Notes under the pieces: generated by a model
Databases searched by the model: none
Told to the model about the DNA's origin: nothing
What the model saw: the letters and a program-made list of their open reading frames with translations, nothing else
Program-made: the position numbers and the translations under genes
Origin: Escherichia coli
GTDB lineage: Bacteria > Pseudomonadota > Gammaproteobacteria > Enterobacterales > Enterobacteriaceae
NCBI RefSeq assembly: GCF_050920415.1
Contig: NZ_CP169309.1
Length of the DNA stretch: 64,000 nucleotides
Direction: 5' to 3' (one strand)
Shown here: positions 4,866 through 53,920 of the stretch, one piece after another
How positions within the stretch are numbered: the first letter of the stretch is position 1
How the letters are laid out: every line of letters begins with the position of its first letter

Positions 4866-5231
4866 TCAAAAGAGGTTATCCTGCGGAGCCAGCACAAAGC
4901 CGCCCTGATCGCCATAGGCACTTAACACCGATTTTTGCACTGATGACTGACCGACCAGTTTCGCCAGTTCATCCATCCGAATCTGCAATAACTGCTTTAC
5001 CCTGCTTTCGTTGTCGAGAATCAGGCGCAGCATCGGGCGGAGTTGCTCCTGCATCGTGGTGGACGGATCAATCTCTTCAGTCAGATGTGCAATCTCCTGC
5101 ACCGCATTCACATACGCCATTTCGCTGGCGATGAGTTCGTCCCATTGTTCTTCCGTTGCCAGGCGTAACATGAGCTGGCTTTTTTCGACGAGTTGTTGCC
5201 AGGCGAAATACAAATGCGGTGCATGGTTCAT
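4866..5231 (-). CDS. fliT: flagellar export chaperone / FlhDC antagonist FliT
   Basis: 121 aa in the fliDST operon position. Confidence 0.9.
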
Positions 5232-18698: not shown

Positions 18699-18785
18699 GC
18701 CCGGATGGTGGAATCGGTAGACACAAGGGATTTAAAATCCCTCGGCGTTCGCGCTGTGCGGGTTCAAGTCCCGCTCCGGGTACCA
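18699..18785 (+). tRNA. leuZ: tRNA-Leu(UAA), intact copy at the prophage left junction
   Basis: 87 nt, GCCCGGATGGTGGAATCGGTAGACACAAGGGATTTAAAATCCC..GGGTACCA, with a long variable arm. Confidence 0.95.
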
Positions 18786-18855
18786 TGGGAAAGATAAGAA
18801 TAAAATCAAAGCAATAAGCAGTGTCGTGAAACCACCTTCGGGTGGTTTTTTTGTA
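18731..18855 (+). repeat. attL: left copy of the 125-bp direct repeat (3' 55 nt of leuZ plus 70 bp downstream including the terminator)
   Basis: Base-for-base identical to 53671-53795 on manual comparison. Identity starts at TTTAAAATCC in the anticodon loop and ends at ..TTTTTTTGTA. Confidence 0.95.
18829..18853 (+). terminator. rho-independent terminator of the glyW-cysT-leuZ operon (inside the att repeat)
   Basis: ACCACC-TTCG-GGTGGT hairpin plus T7. Confidence 0.85.
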
Positions 18856-18868
18856 TTTGTATTTTGTT

Positions 18869-19712: not shown

Positions 19713-19938
19713 TATTCATGCCTATGAGATAGGGTGCCTTATCGGCCTTACCCTGGCAACCGATTGACGGGGAGTTGCCTCCCCGTCGCGGTTTCCTTAC
19801 TGCTTACACTGTAAGAACGCCGCAAACTCCGCTCCCCAGAAGCTCATCCGTATTTCACACAGCGAACCGTGCAGCATCCAGATGATGAGGATTACCGTCA
19901 CGCAGAACGTGATGGCCGTAAGCGATTTTTGCGACATA
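19696..19938 (-). CDS. Hok/Gef-family membrane toxin homolog with an unusual C-terminal extension (80 codons); not present in the supplied ORF track
   Basis: Hand translation gives MSQKSLTAITFCVTVILIIWMLHGSLCEIRMSFWGAEFAAFLQCKQ, then VRKPRRGGNSPSIGCQGKADKAPYLIGMNNNPAA*. The first 46 aa align with HokA (..WMIRDSLCELHIKQESYELAAFLACKLKE). An AAGGAG SD lies 6 nt upstream and an in-frame TAG 30 nt upstream. I checked that the frame contains no stops. Confidence 0.75.
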
Positions 19939-43645: not shown

Positions 43646-43961
43646 ATCCCCCTCCCTTGATACCAATATTTACAACATGGCAAGCCTCTTTGAGCACCCA
43701 GTCAACAGCGTCTTTCCATGCTCCGGTTTCGGCTGGCGGATTCTCACGCTTTACCAGTTCATAGAAACGTACTGCTCTAACCAGTCCATCTGACGGTTTT
43801 GCCTGTAGTGCAGCCTGAGCTATGCGGTATGCCTGGAGTATACGGGCGTCGTTGATATCCATTCCGAACGGAATTTCTGATGATTGTGATTCTGCATCTT
43901 CAAGCCTGGCAATTTCTTTACGTAAGAAGTATTTCAACTCTTGTTTTTGTTTTCTGTTCAT
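43626..43961 (-). CDS. hypothetical protein (111 aa)
   Basis: ATGA overlap with the upstream ZBD gene. Confidence 0.55.
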
Positions 43962-44290
43962 GCGTTTTTTCCCTTTTTGTCTGTCACTTCTCTCCTGATA
44001 ATTTCATTGCACAAATCCACGCACTCATTGCAGATGTAAACAGACGGTCCAGCAATCACCTTTGTGACTTCGTACTGGGATTTATTGCAGAAGCTGCAAT
44101 AAATCGTCTCCTCACCTGAAGTCCATGTTTTGCTGGTTTCGCCAGACATCAGTTGTTTGAGGTCTTTTTCACGACGAAGAACTATCTGGCCACATTCAGC
44201 TATTTTTTGGATGTTGACATTTTCTTCTTTCGCCAGCGCTTCCATCCGCTCAATCAGTCGCTGCGCTTTTTCTCTGTCAATGTGTTGCAT
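43958..44290 (-). CDS. protein with a C-terminal ClpX-type C4 zinc-binding domain (ZBD)
   Basis: 110 aa. Residues ~64-102, [39 protein letters not shown], match E. coli Clp[40 protein letters not shown] at about 30 of 39 positions by eye, and all four Cys are kept. Confidence 0.85.
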
Positions 44291-44353
44291 TGTGTCCCCC
44301 TTGTTTATGCTCCCGGGTTAAAGTCATCAGGGCGGATGCGCCCTGATGTTGTG

Positions 44354-44665
44354 TTATTCGGGAAATAACGCCCGGATATTTCCGGCCATCTGACTGGTTA
44401 TCTGTGCGGCTGATACTGGCTGTGACGCGGGGCGTTCTGTCCTGGGTTGTGTCACTGATAACGCCTCATCATCAGCCCATGCAGCCAGTCGGTAAGCCTC
44501 TGCCGGATTCATTTTCAGTAGTGCCAGCCCGGCCAGAAAAGCCACGCGTTGACCACTTTTGCGGGCTTCTGGTGTAAGGCTGTCCAGCCAGGCGCATGCT
44601 TCGCCTTCGTTCTTGACGGCGGCGGGCTTCAGATAGAAACTTATCCGTCTGGTTGGTGTCGTCAT
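44354..44665 (-). CDS. parR: ParR-like ribbon-helix-helix centromere-binding protein
   Basis: 103 aa from MTTPTRRISFYLKPAAVKNEGEACAWLDSLTPEARKSGQRVAFLAGLALL, compared with R1 ParR ..RRTIAFKLNPDVNQTDKIVCDTLDSIPQGERSRLNRAALTAGLALY. Confidence 0.8.
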   Translation of the reverse strand: MTTPTRRISFYLKPAAVKNEGEACAWLDSLTPEARKSGQRVAFLAGLALLKMNPAEAYRLAAWADDEALSVTQPRTERPASQPVSAAQITSQMAGNIRALFPE

Positions 44666-44669
44666 TGGC

Positions 44670-45629
44670 TTACTCCTTGTCCATTGCGTACAGCCCATTA
44701 ACCAGAGCAAACTGTGGCACCCCGTCCGCGATGAAAGTCGCATTAACTCCGCAGGCTTCGCGGATAGCGGGTGCCACAATCTCCGCCCCGCCACCGACAA
44801 CCATCACCCGCCCGTAACCCGAAAAACCCGCCAGCGCGCGGATCACGCGTTGTTTCAGTGTTTCTTCCTTTTCACGAATAACCGCCATCAGGCTGGCGTA
44901 ATGCGCGTCATTGTGGATGTGCTGGCGCAGCCAGGCTTCATCATGGCGATGTTCAATAATGGTATTGGCGATGTGGTGACTGGTGCGCATACCGTTAGTG
45001 GCCATCACCGACAGCACGGCATCGGCCATCAGTGAAACACCTACGTGTGGATCGCAAAACACCTGGCTGATACCTGCCAGTTGTCCCTGAACCTTTGCCA
45101 CATCCAGCGTGGTTCCGCCCAAATCCACAATCAGCAGGGATTCAAACGGACTCATGTCAGCCAGTGCCTTAAAGCCTGCCGGAATGGATTCAGGCATAAC
45201 CCGCACGTTACGGATAGTGAATGCCTCACCGTTCTGGTACTCCACCGGGCGCATAACGTTCGCTTTTTTGCGGTTGATGTTGGCCATGTCCGGCTGTGCG
45301 TTTGTGTCGAAATACTCGCTCAGTGGCAGGGTGACAACCACATCCACCTCCTGTGGCGTGATGCCTGATTTGACCAGCGCGTGATGAATGGCAATGACAT
45401 TCACATCGCTGTATTGGTATTGCGTGTCGGTCGTCTGGACAAAGCGATCGCTGACCGGATCAAAACCATAGCGCACGCCATCAAGCATGTAGTTCGCGGG
45501 CTGCGTGCCACCGAACGGCGCAGACCATTCCGACTTGAAGCTGTTCGGGCTGATGGCGTTGCGGCGTTCGCCGTTCTCAGTCCATGCCAGCTTGATGTTG
45601 GTGGAGCCGTCGTCGATACAAATTTTCAT
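44670..45629 (-). CDS. parM: ParM/StbA actin-like plasmid segregation ATPase
   Basis: 319 aa, MKICIDDGSTNIKLAW..ISPNSFKSEW..YSDVNVIAIHHAL..VMPESIPAGF..LIVDLGGTTLDV..VMVVGGGAE.., colinear with R1 ParM along its full length. Confidence 0.9.
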   Translation of the reverse strand: MKICIDDGSTNIKLAWTENGERRNAISPNSFKSEWSAPFGGTQPANYMLDGVRYGFDPVSDRFVQTTDTQYQYSDVNVIAIHHALVKSGITPQEVDVVVTLPLSEYFDTNAQPDMANINRKKANVMRPVEYQNGEAFTIRNVRVMPESIPAGFKALADMSPFESLLIVDLGGTTLDVAKVQGQLAGISQVFCDPHVGVSLMADAVLSVMATNGMRTSHHIANTIIEHRHDEAWLRQHIHNDAHYASLMAVIREKEETLKQRVIRALAGFSGYGRVMVVGGGAEIVAPAIREACGVNATFIADGVPQFALVNGLYAMDKE

Positions 45630-45663
45630 GTCGCTTTTCCTTATGTTGATTAATTAATCGTTT

Positions 45664-45683
45664 ACGGGATTCTGAAATCCCGT
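45664..45683. promoter_or_regulatory. dyad ACGGGATT-N4-AATCCCGT upstream of parM (candidate ParR operator / parC element)
   Basis: Perfect 8-bp arms. Part of a ~40-bp direct repeat with 45734-45775. Confidence 0.45.
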
Positions 45684-45705
45684 TTTTGCCTGCTTTGTGC
45701 GCGCT

Positions 45706-48528
45706 TCATATATCACTGCGCGTTTTTTGCTCATTTACGGGATTCGTGAGTCCCGTTTCTGTCTGTTTTTTGTTTCCGCTGGTCAGGCCACCCCGCAGCA
45801 GGTCTGCTTTGCGGCTGGCGCGTTCAGTGGTTTCACTGATTCTCTGTGCGTGCTCTGCGTCGCGGATGGCGCGCAGCATGTCAGAAAGCACAGTAACGGG
45901 TGTTTTCATGGTGTTCTGGTCCTGCTGAAGTGTGGATGCCAGGCGTGCGGCGGCTTCAGGGTCTGATGCCCCCAGCTGTGCCAGATAGCTGGCGACCGGG
46001 TTATGGCGGATCTCCGTGCTGCTTACGCCATGATTACGGCTCAGGCGCTGCCAGAGCTGCGTGATTCGGCTGTCCGGGCGGGTATCCGGTTTGCGTACAA
46101 TTTCAAATCCCTGCGGTGCAATGATGCTGCCGTCAACGTACAGACTGCCGCCCCGTAACAGGTGCTGCATCTGTTGTTCACCGATATGCAGGCCGAGAGA
46201 TTCAGCAGACTCCCGCCATTCTTTAGCGAGTAATTCGTGGTTATCAGGCAAAGGCCGCTGCTGTTTGCGGCTCTGTGTCCAGCTCTGCATTTCATCACTG
46301 CTGTTTTTTGCCTGTTTGTCACGAAGCGAACGCATCAGCGCCCGGCGTTCGTGCCGTTTCAGTGAGCGCATCCATTCGTTCACTTCAACGCCGTCAGGGA
46401 GCTGCGGCCACGGTGCTGGCCGTTCTTCCGGCTGTTCTGTCCCGTTGTTGTCCGTTTCCTGTGCACGGGGACAGTTATTGCCACGAGTCCAAGGGGCGGC
46501 AGGGCCGCCCTGAAGGTCAAAACCATTTTCGTGGGCGTTGTCTCCCGGTTCTGGTTTACGTCTTACCAGCTTCCAGTTATCCGGATGCGTGCACACACGG
46601 GAGGATTCCCCGATGAGTGGTGACCAGATCCCGTAAATCTGTACGCTCTGTTCGCCGTAATCGTTCAGCTCATCTGCGAGGTCGTAGGCGGTGCGAATCA
46701 GGTAGTCCTTGCGTGGAACAAGCACGCCACCCTGTTTTTCAATGTAGGTGGCAAAACACCCGGCATCGGCGGCAGCGAGTACCGCATCCATTGCATCATC
46801 TTTCAGCCGTTGCGGGCCTTCCGGATTGCGTGCCATCTGGCTGGCAAGGCGGCGCAGTTCACGCCACACCTGACGGGAGGGGATGCCAAAGAACTGGAAC
46901 TGACGGACCCGGTGAAGGCGCGCCCAGCCGATGGCGCGCTCCACGCTCTCGGCCATTGATTTTCCGGTTTCGTGGTCAACGCGTGGCTTGCCCGTTTTCG
47001 GGTCGATGCCATCCACGGCGCGGCTGTCCAGGTTCTTTCCGATGTAGGTGGCGATGTAGCTGGTTGGTGTGCCTTTTGAGCCGTCGACATACTCCGCCTT
47101 AAAACGCGGAGTTATGTCATCGCCCAGCTCGTGGCGGTCCTCCTGAATGGCAATATCGCAGACGTGGGACACGATGGTTTCAATCTCGTCCGGATGTGCA
47201 AAGACCATCATATGCCAGTGCACAGTGCCGTCATGGTGAGGCTCCACCGTGCGGATGCCATACCAGCGCAGGCCGTCGCGGTTCAGTTTTTTGCGGACCG
47301 CCGCAAAAAACGTGTTAACCAGGTAATCGCTGGAGTCGCGCATGGTGGCCCCGTTCCATTTGGGGTTCGGATGACCGTTCTCCGTTGTTGCGTGGTATTT
47401 TGACGGGCAGGTGACGGTCAGAAACACCGCTCTGTCGCCACGGGCTTCGGCCAGAAGTTCCAGTCCCTTCATGGTGGCCATCATTTCTGCCTTACGGTGA
47501 ACCGGGTTACTTACTCCCGCGTAATACACCGTCTCGAGATCAATCGTGAACCCGTCTTCATTTTCCAGCATGAAACTTTTCAGGAAATCGCGTGTTTTCT
47601 CGCGCTGTGCGCGAAACTCGCTTAACGCGTCCTGGCTCAGATAGGGGGATGTTTTTCTGGAAACCAGACAGGCGGCGCGGAGTTGTTCTTCCCGCCACTC
47701 ACAACGTAACAGCCACAGTTTGCGTTTCCACCATTCCGCACAGGTCAAGCGAAGGATTGCGCCCGGCAGCAGCTCCGTGTCCGGTTCGTTCCTCCGGTCT
47801 TTGTCTGTTGTCAGTGCGTCATAATGTGGAGGCATGGCGTGCAGGTGTAACGCCATGCGGGCCAGCATCTGATAAGCCTTCAGGGTTACATCCATGGTCA
47901 GCTCGCCATCAGTCGCGCCAAAGCCATCGCAGAGTTTTTCGAAGGTGCTGCTGAACATCGCCGCCGTCATGGTGGCCAGCGTCTGTATCTGGTGTTTGTT
48001 GAGCTGCGGCAGGTAAAGCAAATCGTCCAGGCGTTCGCGTCCGGCAAGGGAGCGATAACCCGGTGTCAGCCAGCGGTGGTCGGTGCGGTCCAGACGTTCG
48101 AATATTTTGCGCAGGGTTCCGCACGCGTAGCGTTCAGCCTGCCAGCTCTTTTTGCCTTTCCGGCGATCGGCTTCCTGTTTTTTGCGCAGGAAGGAGAGGT
48201 GGCGAATAAGCGGATCGCGCAGATAGGACGGCAGCAGGCGCAGCGAGGCCATGGCTTCATCCACCGCGCCACGTGCCTGTTTTCTGGCGTCTCCTGCCAG
48301 TGTGATGGTTTTGTCCTGTTTTTCCTGTGCGTCCAGGCTTTTATTAATCAGGTTGCCCAGCGGCGTGGCGGAGAACGCCGCATCAGCCATTTCCTGGCGG
48401 CGCTCGTTCTCTGCCCGGTAGGCATCCAGCCAGGAGGAAAGCGCGGATTCAGGAGCGGGGATCCCCGTTCCTTCACGCCCCACTGCGTGGCGCGGTTGTT
48501 GCCAGTCCCTGATGTACTCTGCCGTCAT
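45706..48528 (-). CDS. P2/186 gpA-family rolling-circle replication initiator, unusually long (940 aa)
   Basis: Contains ..RTVEPHHDGTVHWHMMVF.. (the HUH-type motif of the Phage_GPA family). In the P2 position at the end of the early operon. Confidence 0.85.
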   Translation of the reverse strand: MTAEYIRDWQQPRHAVGREGTGIPAPESALSSWLDAYRAENERRQEMADAAFSATPLGNLINKSLDAQEKQDKTITLAGDARKQARGAVDEAMASLRLLPSYLRDPLIRHLSFLRKKQEADRRKGKKSWQAERYACGTLRKIFERLDRTDHRWLTPGYRSLAGRERLDDLLYLPQLNKHQIQTLATMTAAMFSSTFEKLCDGFGATDGELTMDVTLKAYQMLARMALHLHAMPPHYDALTTDKDRRNEPDTELLPGAILRLTCAEWWKRKLWLLRCEWREEQLRAACLVSRKTSPYLSQDALSEFRAQREKTRDFLKSFMLENEDGFTIDLETVYYAGVSNPVHRKAEMMATMKGLELLAEARGDRAVFLTVTCPSKYHATTENGHPNPKWNGATMRDSSDYLVNTFFAAVRKKLNRDGLRWYGIRTVEPHHDGTVHWHMMVFAHPDEIETIVSHVCDIAIQEDRHELGDDITPRFKAEYVDGSKGTPTSYIATYIGKNLDSRAVDGIDPKTGKPRVDHETGKSMAESVERAIGWARLHRVRQFQFFGIPSRQVWRELRRLASQMARNPEGPQRLKDDAMDAVLAAADAGCFATYIEKQGGVLVPRKDYLIRTAYDLADELNDYGEQSVQIYGIWSPLIGESSRVCTHPDNWKLVRRKPEPGDNAHENGFDLQGGPAAPWTRGNNCPRAQETDNNGTEQPEERPAPWPQLPDGVEVNEWMRSLKRHERRALMRSLRDKQAKNSSDEMQSWTQSRKQQRPLPDNHELLAKEWRESAESLGLHIGEQQMQHLLRGGSLYVDGSIIAPQGFEIVRKPDTRPDSRITQLWQRLSRNHGVSSTEIRHNPVASYLAQLGASDPEAAARLASTLQQDQNTMKTPVTVLSDMLRAIRDAEHAQRISETTERASRKADLLRGGLTSGNKKQTETGLTNPVNEQKTRSDI
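45737..45756. repeat. second copy of the dyad (ACGGGATT-N4-AGTCCCGT), inside the 3' end of gene A
   Basis: 73 bp from the first copy. Flanking TTT..GTTT(C/T)T also conserved. Confidence 0.45.
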
Positions 48529-51071: not shown

Positions 51072-51100
51072 ATTTTGGTATCAAAAAAGATACCTGTCAA
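51072..51100 (-). promoter_or_regulatory. early lytic promoter with an operator palindrome in its spacer
   Basis: The minus strand reads TTGACA-GGTATCTTTTTTGATAC-CAAAAT. The 18-bp palindrome GGTATC-N6-GATACC (51077-51094) fills the -35/-10 spacer. Confidence 0.6.
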
Positions 51101-51109
51101 GGTTTTTGT

Positions 51110-51514
51110 ATGAAAAATGATATTGGTCAGCGGTTGCGTGAGGAAAGGGAAAGATTGGGACTTAGTCAAGTTGCCATGAGCGACATTGGTGGAGTCAAAA
51201 AGCTAACTCAGCTTAGATATGAGAAAGGAGATAGCTTTCCTGATGCTGCGTATTTGGCAGCGCTGTCTCGTTTTGGCCTTGATGTTCAGTATGTTGTGTT
51301 GGGAATTCACTCACCTGAAACTTATAACGATGATGAGCAGGAGTTGATTACTCGCTTTCGAGCAGCTTCGTTAGATGTGAAAAACGCGGTGATTGGGGCT
51401 TTAAAAGGTGCGATCAGTGAAAAGGAAACTCAGCCATCAGGACGTGAGTTAAATATTTCTGGTGGTAATAACCGTATTGCTGGTCGTGACTATAACGAAA
51501 CTAAGGGTAGGTGA
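51110..51514 (+). CDS. XRE/CI-type HTH immunity repressor
   Basis: 134 aa, MKNDIGQRLREERERLGLSQVAMSDIGGVKKLTQLRYEKGDSFPDAAYL.. Divergent from the lytic operon. Confidence 0.8.
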   Translation: MKNDIGQRLREERERLGLSQVAMSDIGGVKKLTQLRYEKGDSFPDAAYLAALSRFGLDVQYVVLGIHSPETYNDDEQELITRFRAASLDVKNAVIGALKGAISEKETQPSGRELNISGGNNRIAGRDYNETKGR

Positions 51515-52562: not shown

Positions 52563-53564
52563 ATGTCGGTTCGTAAGATTCCATCAGGTAAATGGCTTTG
52601 CGAATGTTATCCCTACGGGGCATCGGGAAAACGCATTCGTAAACAGTTTGCGACAAAAAGTGAGGCGCTCTCTTATGAGCGCCGTTTAATGAATAGTAGA
52701 GTTGGAGACGAGTTTCAAGATGGTTCTGGTCCTCGTCTTTCTGAGTTGATTGCTCGTTGGTTTGAGATGTACGGTAAAACCTTGTCCTCTGGTGCAGAGC
52801 GCAAAGTCAAACTTGAGGCGATTTGTTCCAGGCTGGGAGATCCATTTGCTTCTCAGTTTGACAAAAATATGTTTGCTACTTATCGGGAAAGAAGGCTATC
52901 AGGAGAATGGAATCCCAAGGGGAAGAAAAAACTTAGTGAAGCAACCGTTAATCGCGAGCAGTCATATCTACATGCTGTTTTTGCCGAACTGAAGCGCCTT
53001 GGGGAGTGGTCTGGTGAAAACCCCCTGACTGGTATTCGCAAGTTTCGTGAGGAAGAAAAGGAACTGGCGTTTCTGTATGTAGATGAGATTGAACGCCTTC
53101 TGATTGCGTGTGATGAGTCACGGAATAAAGATTTGGGGGTTGTTGTCCGTATTGGGCTTGCGACTGGTGCTCGGTGGAGTGAAGCAGAAGGATTAAAGCA
53201 ATCTCAAGTACTGCCCGGTCGAATCACATTTGTTAAAACTAAAGGAAAGAAGAACCGCACTGTACCGATTTCACCTCAATTGCAGGCTATGCTTCCTAAA
53301 AAACGAGGAGCGCTATTTTCACCATGTTATGAGGCTTTTGACGCTGCAATTAAGAGAGCGAAGATCGAGCTTCCTGATGGGCAATTAACTCATGTGCTAC
53401 GTCACACGTTTGCCAGTCATTTTATGATGCGGGGCGGAAATATTCTTGTGTTGCAAAAAATACTGGGGCATAGCGATATAAAAATGACTATGCGTTATGC
53501 GCATTTTGCTCCAGGTCATTTAGAGGCTGCTGTTGAATTGAACCCTTTTGACAATAGAGGGTAA
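52563..53564 (+). CDS. int: tyrosine integrase (P2-type)
   Basis: 333 aa, ..HVLRHTFASHFMMRGGNILVLQKILGHSDIKMTMRYAHF.. (R..HxxR..Y catalytic box). Confidence 0.92.
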   Translation: MSVRKIPSGKWLCECYPYGASGKRIRKQFATKSEALSYERRLMNSRVGDEFQDGSGPRLSELIARWFEMYGKTLSSGAERKVKLEAICSRLGDPFASQFDKNMFATYRERRLSGEWNPKGKKKLSEATVNREQSYLHAVFAELKRLGEWSGENPLTGIRKFREEEKELAFLYVDEIERLLIACDESRNKDLGVVVRIGLATGARWSEAEGLKQSQVLPGRITFVKTKGKKNRTVPISPQLQAMLPKKRGALFSPCYEAFDAAIKRAKIELPDGQLTHVLRHTFASHFMMRGGNILVLQKILGHSDIKMTMRYAHFAPGHLEAAVELNPFDNRG

Positions 53565-53670: not shown

Positions 53671-53725
53671 TTTAAAATCCCTCGGCGTTCGCGCTGTGCG
53701 GGTTCAAGTCCCGCTCCGGGTACCA
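53671..53725 (+). pseudogene. displaced 3' fragment of leuZ (55 nt, no 5' half)
   Basis: Starts in the anticodon loop (TTTAAAATCCC..) and ends GGGTACCA. Confidence 0.9.
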
Positions 53726-53795
53726 TGGGAAAGATAAGAATAAAATCAAAGCAATAAGCAGTGTCGTGAAACCACCTTCGGGTGGTTTTTTTGTA
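53671..53795 (+). repeat. attR: right copy of the 125-bp direct repeat
   Basis: Identical to 18731-18855. Confidence 0.95.
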
Positions 53796-53920
53796 CCTGC
53801 AACTTGTCGTTACACCCTCCTTAATTTTTAATCACCGGCAAAGCCACTCAAAAAGTATCTCTGATACGGACCGACATGTAAGATAGGTGTTGGCGAGTTG
53901 AGATCCACAAGGAAAAGCGT

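Follow-up and report, generated by a model that had tools for sequence, protein, structure and literature searches.

The ParMRC systems of the low-copy plasmids R1 and R100 are arranged in the order parC, parM, parR, and in the R1 parC a TTGACA promoter is flanked by ten direct 11-bp iterons. R1 ParR binds ParM through its C-terminal peptide. Comparable pairs are found in elements with other lifestyles. D6, a tailed phage that persists as a P1-like plasmid prophage without integrating, carries the ParM/ParR pair StbA/StbB and a TCTCA iteron array. The integrative and conjugative elements (ICEs) SXT/R391 are normally integrated and encode a type II module, srpMRC, whose centromere, located upstream of the M gene, comprises four short repeats, both direct and inverted. 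This module is expressed only on activation and stabilizes the transient excised ICE, which replicates by rolling circle, lowering its loss (Carraro et al. 2015, PMC4489591). The AlpAC/alpS system of the integrated Corynebacterium prophage CGP3 combines an actin-like filament protein with a DNA-binding adaptor and acts on phage DNA after induction (PMC4446434, PMC5539076). Here, we analyze a parM-parR cassette carried by a P2-family prophage of Escherichia coli, in a 64,000-nt stretch of contig NZ_CP169309.1 (assembly GCF_050920415.1; hereafter the window, whose positions are used throughout). We favor, with reservations, the reading that this cassette partitions or positions the transient extrachromosomal circles of the phage, as srpMRC does for SXT/R391.

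The two genes lie on the minus strand, parM at 44670-45629 (319 aa) and parR at 44354-44665 (103 aa, ATG at 44665), with parR starting 4 nt past the parM stop. A preliminary description of this DNA had taken the larger open reading frame (ORF) for a colinear homolog of R1 ParM and the smaller one for ParR, and profile searches bear out both assignments. ParM matched the Pfam families StbA_N (1.8e-82) and ParM C-terminal domain (1.3e-68), and its residues 2 to 316 are colinear with the structure of R1 ParM (PDB 1mwk, E = 9e-93), retaining the phosphate- and adenosine-binding motifs DDGST, DLGGTT, and GGGAE. At the level of sequence, these matches show ParM to be an intact actin-fold ATPase of the R1 type. 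ParR matched Plasmid_stab_B (PF10784, the StbB/ParR family; 4.9e-24). A profile built only from E. coli phage ParRs had pB171 ParR (PDB 2JD3) as its best solved-structure match (E = 0.004), and a broader profile including plasmid ParRs matched the same structure at 1.5e-17. The predicted small centromere-binding adaptor is thus placed by its profiles in the ribbon-helix-helix ParR family; an AF2 monomer model computed from a 29-sequence alignment was poor (pLDDT 56). It is near certain that the two genes form a ParMR pair, and the cassette classifies by homology as a type II ParMRC (R1/StbAB-family) partition module. It shares with R1/R100 the two ParM domains over 315 colinear residues, the PF10784 family of ParR, the order of the elements, and a CCC core in the centromere sites. 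It differs in the identity of the proteins (about 47% for ParM and about 26% for ParR), in its candidate centromere region, where two inverted-repeat dyads (four half-sites) without consensus promoter stand in place of the R1 iterons, and in its host replicon, an integrating phage instead of a low-copy plasmid. As a matter of description, the preliminary account was accurate in every detail that could be checked, including the ORF coordinates and the 76-nt spacer between gene A and parM.

The element carrying the cassette is a prophage of about 35 kb (about 18.7 to 53.8 kb of the window). It is bounded by 137-nt att repeats (18731-18867 and 53671-53807), the left copy of which overlaps the 3' end of a tRNA-Leu(taa), and it encodes a tyrosine integrase (52563-53564, plus strand; Pfam Int_N and Phage_integrase). 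Phage P88 (Peduoviridae, Xuanwuvirus) matches the window at 93 to 98% DNA identity across most of its genome, which places the prophage, by sequence, in the P88 group of the P2 family, genus Xuanwuvirus. The claim of a complete and intact R1-family pair in an integrase-bearing, tRNA-integrated P2-family prophage therefore stands. In P88 (gp17/gp18), other Xuanwuvirus, and prophage Sp13 of O157 Sakai (stbA), the cassette occupies the same place after gene A, with ParM 100% identical (P88 gp17 included) and DNA 94 to 98% identical; only the parR alleles and the downstream cargo differ.

Upstream of parM lies gene A (45706-48528, minus strand), encoding a 940-aa HUH endonuclease (Pfam Phage_GPA, 1.7e-129; PHROG 91, "nicking at origin of replication"). 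Every gene between a Pe-like early promoter site (51072-51100, minus strand, TTGACA-17-CAAAAT) and the end of parR is on the minus strand, and a consensus scan found this site to be the sole strong promoter-like site in the early transcription unit. Promoter and terminator scans called no consensus sigma-70 promoter and no sense-strand terminator in the interval between gene A and parM. Since parMR has the orientation of gene A, with a Pe-like site upstream and nothing called between the two, we infer that the pair belongs to the early operon, as previously proposed, and would be coexpressed with the replication initiator. Transcription of gene A, parM, and parR is likely driven by the Pe-like site. 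The suggestion that one of the repeats described below overlaps a parM -35 element was dropped, because the scan found no parM promoter and the hexamers seen on hand inspection are weak and unconserved.

The region upstream of parM carries the candidate centromere. The paired repeats of about 40 bp reported earlier were recovered by a repeat search as a 42-nt imperfect direct repeat (45658-45699 and 45731-45772; 79% identical, spacing of 73), each copy being centered on a 20-bp dyad of the form ACGGGATT-N4-AATCCCGT. The proximal, intergenic copy, a candidate parC site and operator at about -53 from the parM ATG, contains the perfect dyad ACGGGATT-TCAG-AATCCCGT (dyad 2, 45664-45683). The distal copy, the other candidate site at about -126, contains ACGGGACT-CACG-AATCCCGT on the gene strand (dyad 1, 45737-45756), with one arm mismatch, and lies within the last codons of gene A. 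Allowing up to three mismatches, the dyad pattern was found only at these two places in the window (0.26 matches expected). Each of the 85 E. coli-type loci that were scored has both dyads, set 73 bp apart; in these loci the commonest form of the distal dyad is the perfect ACGGGATT-CACA-AATCCCGT and most variation falls in the 4-nt center and the outer arm positions.

Comparison with other genera associates this element with parM. Plesiomonas and Hafnia each have two copies of the motif [C/T]GGG-N10-CCC[G/A], one at -129 to -132 and one at -56 to -60, 72 to 73 bp apart, although the DNA upstream of parM does not align with that of E. coli. Over the phages of the three genera, the motif is thus found at about -126 to -132 and -53 to -60 from parM. 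In Hafnia, a 167-aa ORF separates gene A from parM, and the distal motif lies inside the 3' end of that ORF. Because this copy is embedded in a different ORF, the dyad element belongs to parM, not to gene A, which argues against reading the intergenic copy as a duplicated 3' end of gene A. For a similar reason, we rejected a role of the dyads in the gene A origin, since they accompany parM even where it is separated from gene A. In Plesiomonas, the potential stems are only 3 to 4 bp long, and this loss of pairing favors a protein-binding site over a hairpin. The layout differs in the Serratia/Enterobacter branch, where two GGGAAC/GTTCCC cores are nevertheless present, one at about -118 and the other at about -56. 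The 11-bp iterons of an R1-type parC have the core AAACCCA, to which the half-site AATCCCG bears a resemblance. Classical arrays of direct iterons are found in R1-type, D6, and Pantoea plasmid-like loci, whereas the phage clade has only two sites. The classical layout of about 10 direct iterons enclosing the par promoter is therefore replaced by a repeated cis element in a minimal layout. The comparison supports the earlier proposal that the dyads are a ParR operator or parC, and the two-site GGGA/TCCC element at about -55 and -125 probably constitutes a minimal parC, whatever gene lies upstream.

The interval separating the proximal dyad from the parM ribosome-binding site also holds a ATTAATCAA box, at about 45646-45654. 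It is kept in the E. coli, Plesiomonas, and Hafnia lineages (about 4973-4981 in locus L091 and 4976-4984 in L092) and absent from the Serratia/Enterobacter lineage. This box could be a weak -10 element or another binding site.

ParR is mosaic and fast evolving, whereas the adjacent ParM is almost invariant. Clustering at 90% identity gave 2 to 4 clusters for ParM and more than 40 for ParR, whose identity falls to 41%. This variation is unevenly distributed along the protein. Residues 1 to 17 (MTTPTRRISFYLKPAAV, including RRISFYLKP), where a ribbon-helix-helix protein has its DNA-reading strand, vary little or not at all across alleles. Residues 18 to 65 form at least two allele classes, and residues 67 to 92 are a hypervariable linker. 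The C-terminal tail NI(R/Q)A(L/F)FPE is kept across alleles and aligns with the C-terminus of R1 ParR. At 103 aa, the ParR of the E. coli phages is shorter than those of Plesiomonas, Hafnia, Serratia, Enterobacter, R1-type, and IncFIA elements (116 to 140 aa), which have an additional segment of about 15 residues (consensus T....I...I.SVLP). Homology between relatives often breaks within parR, which contains recombination break-points, or at the hairpin directly 3' of it (44325-44348, with a perfect 10-bp stem). This hairpin is the commonest end-point of homology among related prophages and delimits the variable cargo region.

Beyond the E. coli group, the closest relatives of ParM show 54 to 63% identity. 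Those from Plesiomonas, Hafnia, Serratia, and Enterobacter for which the context was fetched are all encoded in P2-like prophages with the common gene order gene A, parM, parR, variable cargo, and portal/terminase. In a neighbor-joining tree (without bootstrap), these ParMs and those of the E. coli phages form one clade of 16 leaves, whose P2-like prophage members span five genera and whose sister group includes an IncFIA plasmid ParM. The spread of the clade over five genera implies long retention, and parMR is, on this phylogeny, a long-standing resident of one P2-family phage lineage. The parM gene was intact in all 88 relatives fetched, with a pN/pS of 0.06, these loci having been picked by ParM similarity. 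The 80 loci from IMG/VR, with ParMs all at least 98% identical, could be used for polymorphism counts and were too uniform for a real covariation test. A scan of genome contigs returned only three near-identical loci.

The cassette is widespread in E. coli. The 1.5-kb cassette matched DNA in 1,307 of 5,426 complete genomes (about 24%), 702 of them at a query cover of at least 80%, with up to three copies per genome. Among the carriers are UTI89 and O157 Sakai, whose Sp13 prophage has the gene under the name stbA. The preliminary description knew of no earlier account of parMR in P2-family phages, but the genes are already on record. RefSeq names P88 gp17 "plasmid segregation protein ParM" and gp18 "partition protein", PHROGs 691 and 2515 are "partition protein" families covering both proteins, and the GenBank record of phage-plasmid D6 notes a similarity to "phage P88 StbA". 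Moreover, the gene A-gene Q interval of E. coli P2-like prophages was the subject of a survey by Rousset et al. (2022), who described it as a defense hotspot with 1,650 gene arrangements; their tables list arrangements with StbA and Plasmid_stab_B, and they suggested a phage-plasmid lifestyle for such prophages. Since the genes are routinely annotated and already published, their presence is not novel, and the phage-plasmid speculation is also on record, in one published sentence. The novelty from scanning the genome is accordingly small. What we add is the five-genus ParM clade, the two-site element that is independent of the upstream gene, and the contrast between a mosaic ParR and a near-invariant ParM.

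One chromosomal locus of the group, in E. coli CUVET19-1704 (L098, 3540-3620), has a P88-type gene A and keeps the dyad in its 3' end without encoding parMR. Its sequence diverges 4 nt past the gene A stop, and parMR with the proximal dyad is replaced by a frameshifted ead/Ea22-like gene. We read this locus as a natural derivative without parMR.

How could such a module serve an integrating phage? ParR dimers would bind the two GGGATT/AATCCC dyads just upstream of parM, whose four half-sites would make up a minimal, bipartite parC. The GGGAT/ATCCC cores are 11 bp apart within a dyad, and the dyads are 73 bp, or about seven helical turns, apart, so that all sites would lie on one face of the helix. 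The conserved tail of ParR would then couple the parC complex to ParM filaments. Because parMR sits behind gene A in the early operon and has no recognizable promoter of its own, the proteins would be made only while the phage genome is extrachromosomal and replicating, either after infection and before integration or after excision. Replication of the P2 type yields monomeric circles. Given such circles and transcription together with gene A, the natural substrate of the system would be the extrachromosomal circle of the phage itself. ParM filaments may push these circles apart or position them, providing a copy for both daughter cells or spreading the genomes for replication and packaging.

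In such a role, the cassette would resemble srpMRC, which serves the excised SXT/R391 ICE, and AlpAC, which serves prophage CGP3. The parallels are not complete. SrpM and SrpR are distant from R1 ParM and ParR, whereas the prophage pair is a clear member of the R1 family; the ICE is not a phage, and the function of srpMRC was demonstrated experimentally (PMC4489591), whereas that of the prophage cassette is predicted. AlpAC involves another actin-like family in another host phylum and contributes to phage DNA transport and efficient replication. If the cassette does segregate or position circles, then P2-like phages, like ICEs and CGP3, would be integrating elements that still need plasmid-style partition, and the two-dyad site would be a convenient minimal centromere for studies of ParR-ParM coupling.

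We consider partition or positioning of transient circles somewhat probable overall, and several points count against it. The site has four half-sites versus ten iterons in R1, and the ParR of the E. coli phages is shortened, which makes the assembly of a full segrosome uncertain. Expression from the Pe-like site only was deduced from a crude consensus scan. Replication driven by gene A gives many copies, and a multicopy pool has less need of partition. The CUVET19-1704 derivative keeps only the dyad embedded in gene A, implying that the cassette is dispensable for prophage residence. Both dyads are followed by T-runs on the plus strand and score as terminator-like. Furthermore, the choice of loci by ParM similarity biases the set used for parM intactness and pN/pS toward intact genes, and our literature search found no paper testing the function of parMR in this phage group. 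The same search found no usable expression data for stbA of Sp13/CP-933T.

A bolder reading is that the life cycle of P88-type phages includes a genuine plasmid phase with active partition, using a stripped-down centromere of two dyads and a shortened ParR. Such a phase would be that of a facultative episome, before integration or after excision, and possibly a carrier state. We regard this as rather unlikely. Were it to exist, a latent phage-plasmid would be present in about one E. coli strain in four, and a parC of four half-sites would suffice for segregation driven by ParM.

The same dyads might act at the RNA level instead of binding protein. They could be intrinsic terminators or RNA hairpins that block antisense read-through from the late P-Q operon or process the early mRNA, in which case ParR would bind elsewhere or nowhere. 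The late P-Q operon does read toward the dyads. On the plus strand, both dyads and the 44325-44348 hairpin are stem-loops followed by T-runs (10 such terminator-like structures found versus 3.3 expected), the dyads resembling weak terminators and the hairpin being a stronger terminator on that strand than on the gene strand. Common variants of dyad 2 (A1 to G and C18 to T) also keep G-U pairs in the sense RNA. Nevertheless, two terminators need no common arm sequence. Plesiomonas and Hafnia have kept the motif at its distance from parM, even though the stems there are reduced and the T/A tracts absent, and the element accompanies parM where another gene lies upstream. When the two strands of the gene A-parM junction were folded as RNA, the only outcome was mutual pairing of the dyads, a long-range fold that is the by-product of two identical palindromes, and an Rfam search matched no family except tRNAs. 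Taken together, these observations make a role as terminators or processing hairpins improbable.

A further possibility is that the cassette keeps P88-type prophages as stable low-copy plasmids instead of integrated elements. Rousset et al. (2022) suggested this idea, and D6 uses a related StbAB pair (ParM 48% identical). Moreover, plasmid pZ1323PEC0009-2, deposited for an E. coli isolate from a cat, is a circular, complete P88-like genome of 34,461 bp (NZ_CP148288.1) with an integrase, parMR, and hok. This lone record could, however, be an induced or excised form, and in complete E. coli genomes the cassette was found at 1,453 chromosomal places and only 2 plasmid places. Unlike the autonomous, unintegrated P1, N15, and D6, the prophage has an integrase and att repeats and is integrated at tRNA-Leu. 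No plasmid-type replicon was seen in it, and its replication relies on the rolling-circle initiator gene A. A stable phage-plasmid life is thus disfavored by the data, and we give it little credence.

The cassette could also be of no use to the phage, as a plasmid module that the variable gene A-gene Q hotspot acquired and has simply carried along. This would fit its position at the edge of the hotspot and the existence of a derivative without parMR. The low pN/pS of parM points instead to strong purifying selection, the cassette invariably follows the replication region as the first cargo, ahead of genes that vary, and the five-genus clade speaks for long retention. A functionless passenger is therefore very doubtful. 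The least credible alternative, in which the prophage ParR, ParM, or parC sites disturb ParMRC plasmids or related superinfecting phages, would accommodate the diversity of ParR beside a near-invariant ParM (a pattern of specificity under pressure), the multiple copies per genome, and the location in a defense hotspot, but it is disfavored by the data, since PADLOC gave no match for ParM, ParR, or the five downstream ORFs tested, ParR is divergent from R1-type ParR and the sites differ from R1 iterons, the DNA-reading strand and dyads are invariant among alleles, so that specificity is apparently not diversifying, UTI89 harbors both the cassette and pUTI89, which is reported to be stabilized by a ParM-type system, and the genes would be silent in lysogens if transcribed only from Pe.

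Other features of the prophage and its relatives were recorded along with the cassette. An HTH repressor gene (51110-51514) is divergent from the Pe-like site. Directly past parR, a minus-strand gene (43958-44290) encodes a 110-aa protein comprising little beyond a ClpX-type C4 zinc finger (Pfam zf-C4_ClpX, 8.2e-18). Its counterpart is P88 gp19, whose annotations are odd, and it could be a decoy or modulator of ClpX. The cargo found just past parR in relatives varies: HicA/HicB in Serratia (L094, 6450-7084), a KAP NTPase in Enterobacter (L095, 5411-6757), and a DUF3800 protein in an E. coli relative (L097, 5506-6216). Such lineage-specific cargo is consistent with the published gene A-gene Q defense hotspot. 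Near the att end of the prophage, an ORF of 46 aa (19797-19937, minus strand) belongs to the Hok/Gef toxin family (Pfam, 3.7e-07). We considered it as a second plasmid-like stability trait and rejected this view, because Hok homologs are also common in Stx lambdoid phages. Finally, a 226-kb contig labeled Vagococcus sp. WN89Y (NZ_JBQPOM010000071.1, L005) carries an E. coli-type cassette with a ParM 98% identical, and this assembly is probably contaminated or mislabeled.

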